From Escherichia phage EP75, in the sequence record MG748547: a DNA stretch of 64,000 nt. One strand, given 5' to 3'. The translations under genes were made by a program, and so were the position numbers. How positions within the stretch are numbered: the stretch's first letter is position 1; each line of letters starts with the position of its first letter. The notes under the pieces were generated by a model. The model did not search any database. It was given only the letters and a program-made list of their open reading frames with translations, and was not told the origin of the DNA. This document shows, piece after piece, positions 59,879 to 62,900 of this stretch.

Positions 59879-59918
59879 CTAAATACCCCTAGATGACATG
59901 AATACATTTAGGGGTATT
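59879..59918 (+). promoter_or_regulatory. late-promoter-like motif inside hairpin that pairs with the ribosome-binding region
   Basis: CTAAATACCCCTA-N17-TAGGGGTATT, 5 nt before ATG 59923. Confidence 0.5.
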
Positions 59919-59922
59919 ACAA

Positions 59923-62900
59923 ATGGCCAACAAACCAACACAGCCTCTTTTCCCTTTGGGTTTAGAAACTTCTGAGTCTTCGAACATAAAAGGCTTCAAC
60001 AACTCCGGCACTATTGAGCATTCCCCTGGTGCCGTAATGACATTCCCTGAAGATACTGAAGTTGCAGGTCTTCCATCTTCTGTGCGTTACAATCCCGATA
60101 GCGATGAATTTGAAGGTTATTACGAAAACGGTGGTTGGTTGTCTTTGGGGGGCGGCGGAATACGCTGGGAAACGCTCCCTCACGCTCCCTCTAGCAATTT
60201 GTTAGAAGGTCGCGGCTATCTCATTAATAACACCACAGGGGCATCTACAGTGGTTCTCCCTTCCCCTACGCGTGTTGGGGATTCCGTTACTATTTGTGAT
60301 GCCTATGGGAAATTCGCGACGTATCCATTGACCGTATCTCCAGCGGGAAATAACCTGTATGGTTCCACTGAAGACATGGCTATAACAACTGATAACGTAT
60401 CAGCAACGTTCACTTGGTCTGGACCTGAACAAGGTTGGGTTATCACATCCGGCGTCGGCCTTGGCCAAGGCCGTGTCTACAGTCGTGAAATCTTTACACA
60501 AATTTTGGCGTCTGAAACAAGTGCTGTCACTCTCAATACTCCACCAACAATCGTGGACGTGTACGCTGACGGAAAACGTCTTGCGGAATCCAAATATTCA
60601 CTAGATGGGAATGTGATCACTTTCAGTCCTTCTTTGCCAGCCAGCACAGAACTTCAGGTGATTGAATATACTCCTATTCAATTGGGTAATGGCGGTGGTT
60701 CTGGTTCTTCTACGATTACCTGGGTCTATAATGGGGGTTCAGCGGTTGGCGGTGAAACCGAAATCACGTTAGACATCGTTGTCGATGATGTTCCAGCCAT
60801 TGATATAAACGGAAGTCGCCAGTATAAAAATCTGGGGTTCACATTCGATTCATTAACCAGTAAAATCACTCTTGCGCAAGAACTGGATGCAGAGGATGAA
60901 GTTGTTGTAATTATCAATGGAACGCCAAACATCTATAATCAAATTGATTATACTTTGCGGGAAGTGGCTCGTGTAACCAATGTTAAAGATACAGAGGTCA
61001 TTTATTTTAGTGTTGGTGCTGTGTTAAGTGGGTATAAAGTTATCTATGATAAAGTAACACAGAGATCATATTTTATTCCAGAGCTACCGACTGGAACCAC
61101 GGCAGTCAGCCTTAGTTCTTCGGCTGTACTTGTGCATTCAGCTGGTAGTGTTGATCTGGGCGCATTAGCTGTATCTCGCGAAGAGTATGTTACCTTGTCT
61201 GGGACATTTGATTCTGGTGCTGTCATCAATACTAAAAATGAATTACTCACCCATACGAACGGTAAGTATCGCTGGGATGGTTCACTTCCTAAAACTGTCG
61301 ATGCTGGATCAACACCTGAAACATCTGGTGGAGTTGGTATTGGTGAATGGGTAAGTGTTGGTGATGCTTCTTTAAGATCTGATTTGAATTCGACAAATGG
61401 AGCTGGAATTGTAAAAACTGGAAATGGGAATACTGTACAAGAAACATTTGATTTTATAAAAAATGTTCAACAAACAAATCTACATCCTTTTGTTCCTTCA
61501 GGCAATTTCGGTTCTGGACTTCCTTTTGATTCTTCGTTACAGGTATTCAAGTATAATGATGAATATTACTCATACAAAGGACCTATTGTCCCAGGTTCGA
61601 CAGTTCCGGCAACCCCATCCGTTGACTCAAACTGGAAAAAAGAACCTATTTCTGATTACATAGAAAATTACGGTGGTGGTGTGCATGTAGCTGATCAGAC
61701 ACCTGCAATTATGGCGGCTATATCTGCTGGTGTTCGCCGTATCATATTTCCTAAAGGTGAACTTAGAATGTCTCAGTGTGATATCCCAGAGTACACACAA
61801 GGCCTCACGTTTGAAGGGCAAGGTGCCAATCAGGCGTACACTGGAACAACAGTGATCAAACCGTTAAATGATAATCAAAATTGTTTATTTAATTCTGGCG
61901 TAAACCAGCACGGACAGGATTCTATAAAATTTAAAAACATTCAATTTGACGGAGAATGGCGTTGCAATCATGCAATATTGCATGAGTCTGGAGCTGGTTG
62001 GTACTATGAAAAACTGACAGGTAAAAATTTCAATACATGGGTTATCTACGATGATCAGGGTTTGACTGTAATGCGTGACGTTTATACCGAAGCAACCAGT
62101 TCAGATCTGACGAAAAGAGCTACAGGTGGGTGTATCCGTATATACTCAGATTCTGTAATGGACACCGTAAACTGTTATGGTGGAAGTGTTCCGCTATTGC
62201 TCGCTGCTGGTGGAAACCGAATTACGAATATCTGGGCAAATGGTGGGTATGATGTTGGCGCAATAATGTTGATGCCAAAAAATGACAGTACTAACCATAT
62301 CAATACCGCTATGAGCAATATCTATATCGGAGAAAGCACAAATACATCTGCAACTGCAATTCCAGTTCTTCACATACAAGGTAACTCAATTCGTCGCGTA
62401 TCTGGTGTTCAGATTTCAAATGCACATTTTGTGCATGCTGACTTGACTCTCAATACAAACATGGTGATGATACGAACCGATAAAGTTGATGGTTTTGTGA
62501 TGTCATCTTTTGATGTTCTTGGACGAGGCGAGTACAGTTCTGCAAGCAGTCGCACATATAATTTCTTAAATGCGACAGATTCTACCGGAATGGCTTTTTC
62601 TGCCGGAAGTGTAAGAGGTATTAATAATAACCCAATAGTTTTATCATCAGGGTCTAGGTTAGCTATTGATGCCGTTGAATTCGATGGGTGGAGTACGAAC
62701 TCTGATTCAGGTATAGAGAATAAAGCTGCTATACGTTCATCTGGTGCTGGAACAAGGTGCTGCATTGGTAGCTCATGTACTTTCAATGCTTCGCAAGCGG
62801 ATGCTTACGCTGTGTATGCAGGGGATGAATTTGCAGTTGATATTTCTATTCTTAATCTTAACTATCCTAGTAGCAATATAATAATTCCTGCAAATACAAA

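Follow-up and report, generated by a model that had tools for sequence, protein, structure and literature searches.

Why does a late-promoter-like motif in front of several genes of Escherichia phage EP75, two tailspike genes among them, serve as the 5' arm of an RNA hairpin that has the ribosome-binding region of the same gene as its 3' arm? We addressed this question in a 64,000-nucleotide stretch of the genome (sequence record MG748547), referred to here as the window. A preliminary description of this DNA had named four such sites and drawn a parallel with the lysozyme gene of phage T4, in which early transcripts reading through from upstream are untranslatable while late transcripts starting inside the hairpin are translated. 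The sequence and the RNA modeling presented here indicate that the elements are probably late promoters of the gp55 type (CTAAATA) fused to a translational gate.

The CTAAATA(CCCC) late-promoter motif itself is already known, and is said to have been introduced by Adriaenssens et al. in 2012. The window is from a Kuttervirus (Ackermannviridae). Over positions 58000-64000, it is 96.5% identical to Salmonella phage vB-SalM-SJ3, and this region matches hundreds of Kuttervirus genomes. As the annotated relative for comparison, we used the complete genome of SPTD1 (OP991882.2), which carries 7-bp features named 'Kuttervirus late gene promoter' at positions orthologous to the four sites (OP991882.2 annotation). 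What the preliminary description called a late-promoter-like motif is hence a recognized Ackermannviridae late-promoter motif; CTAAATAcCcc is cited among two 'unique regulatory motifs' of ViI-like or Ackermannviridae phages (PMC7283392). The papers on these phages that we read treat it as a promoter only, and we found no mention in them of hairpins or of pairing between the motif and the ribosome-binding site. The exact sequence CTAAATACCCC occurs three times in the window, and allowing one mismatch gives four matches against 0.67 expected. CTAAATA equals the late consensus of Aeromonas phage Aeh1, which has a/gC at -13/-12 and reads (A/G)CTAAATA, and the T4 late promoter is an 8-bp box spanning -13 to -6 (PMC2988020). 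Homologues of gp55 and gp45 are annotated in SPTD1, their genes lying outside the window, and a T4-like late-promoter accessory protein has been reported in related Kutterviruses.

The four sites of the preliminary description are all present where it had placed them:

59879-59889, plus strand: site 1 motif CTAAATACCCC, with CTAAATA (59879-59885) as the -10-like box and ACCCC as the core of the 5' arm
59882-59895 with 59905-59918, loop 59896-59904, plus strand: hairpin 1, 14 bp with one G.U; ATG at 59923
63004-63014, plus strand: site 2 motif CTAAATACCCC, with CTAAATA at 63004-63010; 'late gene promoter(16)' of SPTD1
63007-63017 with 63030-63040, plus strand: hairpin 2; ATG at 63044 of a TSP3-type tailspike gene that extends past the window end
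48525-48515, minus strand: site 3 motif CTAAATACCCC, with CTAAATA at 48525-48519
48521-48511 with 48505-48495, minus strand: hairpin 3, 11 bp with one U.G; ATG at 48492
51467-51461, minus strand: site 4 (weak), ATAAATA, with stem 51463-51456 with 51443-51436; ATG at 51434 of a 77-aa gene

Hairpin stability was assessed by RNA folding against 200 shuffles, and a second independent run was made. Hairpins 1, 2 and 3 fold at -19.1, -19.6 and -18.1 kcal/mol, with z-scores of -5.3, -3.7 and -4.9, respectively, and an equally stable fold was found in 0/200 shuffles for each of them. The stems had been described as perfect and 8-10 bp long; at sites 1-3 they measure 11-14 bp and, owing to G.U wobbles, are not all perfect. 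The 3' arm of these three sites, previously noted as the G-rich stretch before the ATG, is GGGGUAUU and covers a GGGGU Shine-Dalgarno (SD) sequence followed by a UAUU spacer. The GGGGU lies 5-6 nt ahead of the AUG, can pair with the 16S anti-SD (-6 to -8 kcal/mol) and resembles the ribosome sites of the neighboring genes. Site 1, whose motif takes the position of 'Kuttervirus late gene promoter(15)' in SPTD1 and whose hairpin holds the GGGGU in its 3' arm, precedes a 1013-aa tailspike of the TSP4 type; tailspikes 1 and 2 of the preliminary description correspond to TSP4 and TSP3 in the SPTD1 annotation. The gene behind site 3, labeled ART-like, encodes a 149-aa ART-PolyVal protein (Pfam, 42.3 bits against a cut-off of 31.2). 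At site 4, the stem overlaps the SD AGGAGG and its spacer; its hairpin, already described as weaker, folds at -9.0 kcal/mol with a z-score of -1.8, and with 9/200 shuffles equally stable it is not significant alone.

Further instances were sought among all occurrences of CTAAATA and TAAATA in the window. The count of four proved incomplete, as at least two had been missed:

56017-56059, plus strand: instance before the gp6 baseplate wedge gene, with CTAAATA at 56017-56023; ATG at 56064; 'late gene promoter(14)' of SPTD1
37941-37970, minus strand: instance before a 55-aa gene, with the T4-consensus TATAAATA at 37970-37963; ATG at 37932

Upstream of gp6, AUCUUCA.CACC (56023-56034) pairs with GGUG.UGGAGAU (56048-56059, SD GGAG) at -17.1 kcal/mol (z -3.6). 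Upstream of the 55-aa gene, UCCUUGCUU (37962-37954) pairs with AAGUGAGGA (37949-37941, SD GAGGA) at -9.7 kcal/mol (z -3.0). In both, the 5' arm is not ACCCC but the complement of the SD of the gene itself. At all sites, a late box (CTAAATA, ATAAATA or TATAAATA) lies 26-40 nt 5' of the AUG.

How might such an element work? The end of the box together with the next 5-10 nt (ACCCC... at the strongest sites) is the reverse complement of the gene's own SD and spacer (GGGGUAUU). In the mechanism that we propose, RNA entering from upstream would contain both arms, and the 11-14 bp hairpin that they form would make the ribosome-binding site inaccessible, leaving the gene untranslated. RNA made from the late promoter would begin about 6 nt past the box, beyond the CCCC, and would be translated, as it would lack the 5' arm. 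More specifically, if the T4 box geometry (-13 to -6) applies, the start is predicted 6 nt after the last A of the box, just past the CCCC and inside the 5' arm. The motif, the hairpins, their statistical excess, covariation, strand bias and conservation are shown by the data presented here; that these particular sites act as promoters, where exactly transcription starts and how translation is affected are what we infer from them. The cost of opening the ribosome site was modeled as the free energy needed to expose positions -14 to -6, comparing RNA that starts 5-8 nt past the box (late transcript) with RNA that carries 60 nt of upstream sequence (read-through):

Sites 1-3, modeled SD opening: 16.3-16.7 kcal/mol in read-through RNA, 4.5-5.1 kcal/mol in the late transcript
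55-aa gene, modeled SD opening: 10.7 kcal/mol in read-through RNA, 1.9-3.0 kcal/mol in the late transcript
gp6, modeled SD opening: 14.2 kcal/mol in read-through RNA, 9.7 kcal/mol in the late transcript
Site 4, modeled SD opening: 6.8 kcal/mol in read-through RNA, 4.8-5.0 kcal/mol in the late transcript

In the modeled read-through RNA of sites 1-3, the probability that the SD is unpaired is 0.00-0.11. Most hairpin sites have co-directional genes or tRNAs upstream, with no terminator called in between.

The larger set of promoters in SPTD1 allowed the pairing to be assessed statistically; for this analysis, the start codons of TSP2 and of a RuvC-like gene were shifted to a downstream in-frame ATG. 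Across 18 gene-proximal CTAAATA sites, the segment after the box pairs better with the pre-AUG region of its own gene than with those of the others (permutation p=2e-5). The same own-versus-cross preference is found for 30 TAAATA-bearing genes, whether only variable bases are used, a single CCCC representative is retained or all CCC sites are removed (p<=6e-5), and chance purine/pyrimidine complementarity is ruled out by this permutation, with the CCC sites in or out. Furthermore, we scanned the 210 annotated genes of SPTD1 for a sequestered SD, defined as a -15 to -5 region paired to upstream sequence with a probability >=0.7. This state was found in 12/30 genes with TAAATA at -55 to -22 and in 13/180 others (Fisher p=1.3e-5; Mann-Whitney p=1.2e-4 for sequestration in TAAATA genes versus others), and the box lies in the 5' arm for 7/10 of the most sequestered ribosome sites. 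The arrangement also occurs on the genes for a RuvC-like resolvase, a peptidoglycan-binding protein and UvsW, and the gated set includes tandem structural genes, namely gp6, gp14 and TSP2-4.

Among these paralogous hairpins, offsets +1 to +8 past the box remain paired through 3-6 different pair types. The arms differ from site to site and are complementary within each, as in ACCCCAUA/UAUGGGGU, ACCCAUAAC/GUUAUGGGU, AUCUUCA/UGGAGAU, ACCUUCA/UGAGGGU and UCCUCGC/GUGAGGA. Loops span 4-13 nt, and relative to the AUG the 3' arm usually occupies about -18 to -3, with -20 and -1 as the extremes. The 13 SPTD1 hairpins contain 10 G.U pairs in total, and in 11/13 the sense RNA is more stable than the antisense (Wilcoxon p=8.5e-4). 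Both the G.U pairs and the stability bias toward the sense strand argue against a DNA palindrome.

Is the pairing maintained between relatives? For the comparison of orthologues we took 17 loci at the 396-aa gene and 17 at gp6, each with flanks of +-10 kb. The elements are kept across loci whose neighboring proteins are as little as 50-80% identical, and hairpin 1 is kept in 17 loci, in some of which the upstream protein is only 50-65% identical. Variable columns are concentrated in the loops (9/27, versus 3/96 in the stems; p=5e-5), and at site 3 the loop varies and the stem does not. The changes seen in stems mostly turn a wobble into a Watson-Crick pair, such as U.G to C-G at gp6 (L031, L038) and U.G to U-A at site 3. 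At site 4, a two-sided compensatory change from G-C to C-G converts the AUAGAUCU/AGGUCUAU of Kuttervirus into AUACACCU/AGGUGUAU in L035, and L034 holds the mismatched intermediate. Because of this compensatory change, we regard site 4 as a real member of the set despite its weak z-score. The parallel with the T4 lysozyme gene extends to everything that it predicts at the level of sequence: motif, geometry if transcription starts 6 nt past the box as in T4, modeled opening cost, gene-specific covarying pairing and sense RNA.

A possible further instance lies beside the tRNA genes of the window:

52620-52657, minus strand: possible instance, CTAAATA at 52657-52651, before a 47-aa open reading frame (ORF); ATG at 52614

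Its 5' region pairs with AUUUGGUG directly before the SD, weakly in the window; in SPTD1 and other relatives the same leader forms a clear 10-bp stem. The register is CACUAAAU/AUUUGGUG in EP75 versus ACCAGUUGUU/AACAAUUGGU in SPTD1 and the other relatives. It has shifted because the 3' arm changed, and the SD-adjacent pairing is kept by a different route. Three tRNA genes occupy 51921-52733 (minus strand), one of which is abutted by the CTAAATA promoter at 52657. They lie upstream of an intrinsic-terminator-like hairpin at 51504-51482 (minus strand; AGCCCGAUCAGGAUGAUCGGGUU followed by UCUUUUU), and the promoter of site 4 stands directly 3' of this hairpin. In addition, the window contains a hairpin of the same logic with a sigma-70-like promoter. 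At 3802-3857 (plus strand), TTCTAT-N14-TATAAT, a promoter of the early type that differs at one position from the family motif TTCAAT[N14]TATAAT, lies in the 5' arm of a 14-bp stem (3811-3824 with 3838-3851; -20.4 kcal/mol, z -3.7), whose 3' arm holds the SD GGAG of a 475-aa gene (ATG at 3854).

To follow the distribution of the cassette, IMG/VR was scanned for the exact pattern CTAAATACCCC-N(8-30)-GGGGTAT-N(1-9)-ATG. Three to five sites were found per Ackermannviridae genome, and the pattern also occurs in about 17 smaller metagenomic contigs, where the arms are complementary beyond the specified bases. A Pfam scan of seven proteins downstream of the metagenomic cassettes identified a SegE-type GIY-YIG domain in two (L070, L099) and a NUMOD3 motif in two (L070, L083); the protein of L066 had no Pfam match. 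L066 and L106, the latter outside the Pfam scan, share the same N-terminal sequence with the homing-endonuclease-like set. The cassette is thus the one known from hairpin-regulated homing endonucleases. In one contig (L061), the cassette precedes a fragment of a family-B DNA polymerase.

Several points weigh against a gated late promoter. We found no 5'-end mapping, RNA-seq or translation data for any Ackermannviridae phage in the literature. The genes TSP4, TSP3 and TSP2 come after other late genes, so that for TSP2-4 the gated read-through would itself be late, which the T4 rationale of avoiding premature early expression leaves unexplained. The preliminary description's view that early transcripts are kept untranslatable therefore fits part of the set and does not fit the tailspike genes. 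The gp6 hairpin is present without a co-directional gene immediately upstream, and roughly half of the CTAAATA promoters lack a hairpin of this kind. Furthermore, T4 late promoters favor A/T just downstream of the box (PMC2988020); CCCC is G/C, so the start-site geometry may differ from that of T4. Finally, the promoter of a 152-aa gene keeps CTAAATACCCCATA in other genera without a complementary 3' arm, which suggests that ACCCC may also be a promoter element in itself. The ACCCC extension is seen most clearly without a hairpin at this gene: its promoter reads CTAAATATCCC in the window (48007-48046, minus strand), CTAAATAGTCC in SPTD1 and CTAAATACCCCATA in other genera, and an SD-pairing arm is found in none.

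Which other explanations could account for the same structures? The likeliest of them, although itself improbable, is that the hairpins are primarily terminators or 3'-end stabilizers of the upstream gene with an overlapping restart promoter, comparable to PeSLs, a described class of terminator-promoter composites (PMC4122927), and that SD sequestering is incidental. Some SPTD1 members do carry a U-rich tail after the G-rich arm (GGGUAUUUUUAUG at the RuvC-like gene, GGAGGUAUUUUCUU at ORF145 and GGGGUAUUUUCAAAUG at TSP2), and in the same genome the loop of a terminator-like hairpin contains a late promoter at ORF136, and at ORF132 a late promoter comes immediately after such a hairpin. In the window, sites 1-3 and gp6 were uncalled in a consensus terminator scan, which speaks against termination as their main function, and their tails (UAUUACAA, UAUUAUCA and UAUCUAUG at sites 1-3, UAUCAUG at gp6) have no clear U-tract. 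The 3' arm is also anchored near the AUG whatever the distance between promoter and AUG, and it covaries with the SD; termination requires neither. The two functions are compatible, and partial termination may coexist with gating. The two SPTD1 structures just mentioned (60371-60409 and 61242-61290; L020) consist of a loop promoter, AAUCCCCC-UAAAUACA-GGGGGAUU, followed by UCUUUUU, and of a promoter that follows a GCCCC-UUCG-GGGGC stem. Transcripts from the loop promoter would escape the terminator that stops read-through.

It is improbable that the inverted repeats act as DNA, either as the site of a dimeric late regulator or as homology boxes of ~40-60 bp for cassette exchange, with the RNA fold as a by-product. 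The idea draws on the shuffling mediated by PeSLs as a precedent (PMC2839356, PMC4122927), on the CTAAATACCCC...GGGGTAT...ATG cassettes that precede SegE-type GIY-YIG or NUMOD3 homing-endonuclease-like genes in metagenomic contigs of non-Ackermannviridae size, and on the ~60 nt upstream of TSP2 and TSP3 in SPTD1, which are near-identical direct repeats flanking the host-range gene TSP3. These repeats (124623-124690 and 126846-126910; L021) read AAAUUU(U)AUUAGUUCAGACUAAAUACCCCAUAUUGG...CCUUUAUGGGGUAUU and could be PeSL-like recombination boxes of the tailspike cassettes. The wobble pairs and the significant sense-over-antisense bias oppose a DNA-level role and, together with the variable loops, lead us to reject a palindrome or protein site as the main function; more specifically, neither the range of loop lengths nor the differing arm sequences fit a single DNA-binding protein. 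Known breakpoints of tailspike exchange, moreover, fall within the genes, past the conserved N-terminal portion, which also counts against this explanation.

Similarly small is the probability that ACCCC is an extended late-promoter element read by the Ackermannviridae gp55 and that its pairing with G-rich ribosome sites is an accident of their composition. The published motif includes the cCcc (PMC7283392), and the arm-less CTAAATACCCCATA upstream of the 152-aa gene in other genera points the same way. An accident of composition would not account for the own-versus-cross preference, which stays significant without any CCC site (p=6e-5), nor for the non-CCCC arms AUCUUCA, ACCUUCA, UCCUCGC, GAUCU and AACCAGUUG, each of which fits its own SD region. 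The complementarity extends past both motif and SD (CUAGAUG/CAUUUAG, CAUAC/GUGUG), and stems are conserved while loops drift.

Translational coupling is rejected as a general mechanism, the upstream stop being 40 nt away at site 2; at site 1 it lies 2 nt before the motif, and a ribosome terminating there would get no further than the A-U base of the stem. A comparison of the window with Rfam gave three tRNAs as the only matches at or above the gathering score, and no known RNA family was found at the hairpins.

If a gated late promoter is the correct reading, what would follow from it? We tentatively suggest that CTAAATAcCcc combines a gp55 box of 7 nt with an anti-SD arm, and that the Ackermannviridae may use such gates systematically, on ~40% of their late promoters and on one or more early-type promoters, so that the translation of each gene would depend on its own promoter only. 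The tandem tailspike cassettes would then be insulated from late read-through from upstream, and gating could hold the branched tailspike complex to a fixed stoichiometry. Each host-range cassette would be a portable, self-contained expression unit, like homing endonuclease genes in other phages. The gate would also explain the GGGGU ribosome sites and part of the published motif. On the practical side, a classic regulatory device of T4 would be extended to the Ackermannviridae, phages in wide use, also in engineered form, for the detection and biocontrol of Salmonella and E. coli. A reporter or chimeric tailspike inserted behind a 'late promoter' would be translated well only if its transcript starts there, and copying the 11-mer with or without its partner arm would alter the outcome.

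The gate would also correct start-codon calls in database records where the ATG lies in the 3' arm. The SPTD1 annotation places the starts of TSP2 (124623) and of the RuvC-like gene (45958) at in-frame ATGs that fall within the 3' arm (UUAUGGGGU), and the true starts are likely 12-15 nt downstream of the annotated ATG. The 'late gene promoter' features on the minus strand of SPTD1 are displaced 6 nt from CTAAATA.

How do these elements compare with known systems? A late promoter inside a hairpin that sequesters the ribosome-binding site has been proven for T4 e, soc, 49 and I-TevI (PMC3014915, PMC2988022), and structured long transcripts of gene e give ~100-fold less lysozyme (PMC3014915). As in these T4 genes, the DNA for the 5' strand of the stem includes a box of the gp55 type (TATAAATA or CTAAATA) and the 3' strand contains the SD and/or AUG; long transcripts are predicted to be untranslatable and late ones to lack the 5' strand. 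The RuvC-like resolvase, peptidoglycan-binding protein and UvsW of SPTD1 are functional counterparts of 49, e and uvsW. In contrast to T4, which is A/T-rich past the box, the CTAAATA of the Ackermannviridae is followed by the G/C-rich ACCCC, and the box itself (AAAUA) pairs with the spacer between SD and AUG (UAUUU). Also unlike T4, the arrangement is found on ~40% of the candidate late promoters, including those of tandem structural genes with late read-through. Hairpin-gated leaders have also been described for I-TevI/II/III, segB and Aeh1 mobE (PMC3014915, PMC2988022), and these homing endonucleases have the same promoter-plus-hairpin cassette as the window, where the gated genes are instead tailspikes, a baseplate wedge, an ART-PolyVal protein and small ORFs. 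With the PeSLs of T4-type phages, the elements share the character of short, repeated, intergenic composites of promoter and stem-loop (PMC4122927), and the window has an early-type analogue in the hairpin at 3802-3851. PeSLs join an early promoter to a terminator and have been linked to recombination, whereas in the elements of the window the promoter is late, the stem holds the SD and there is no clear U-tract. Compared with the published CTAAATAcCcc, the sequence is the same, and we suggest that its 'cCcc' part largely reflects the anti-SD arm.

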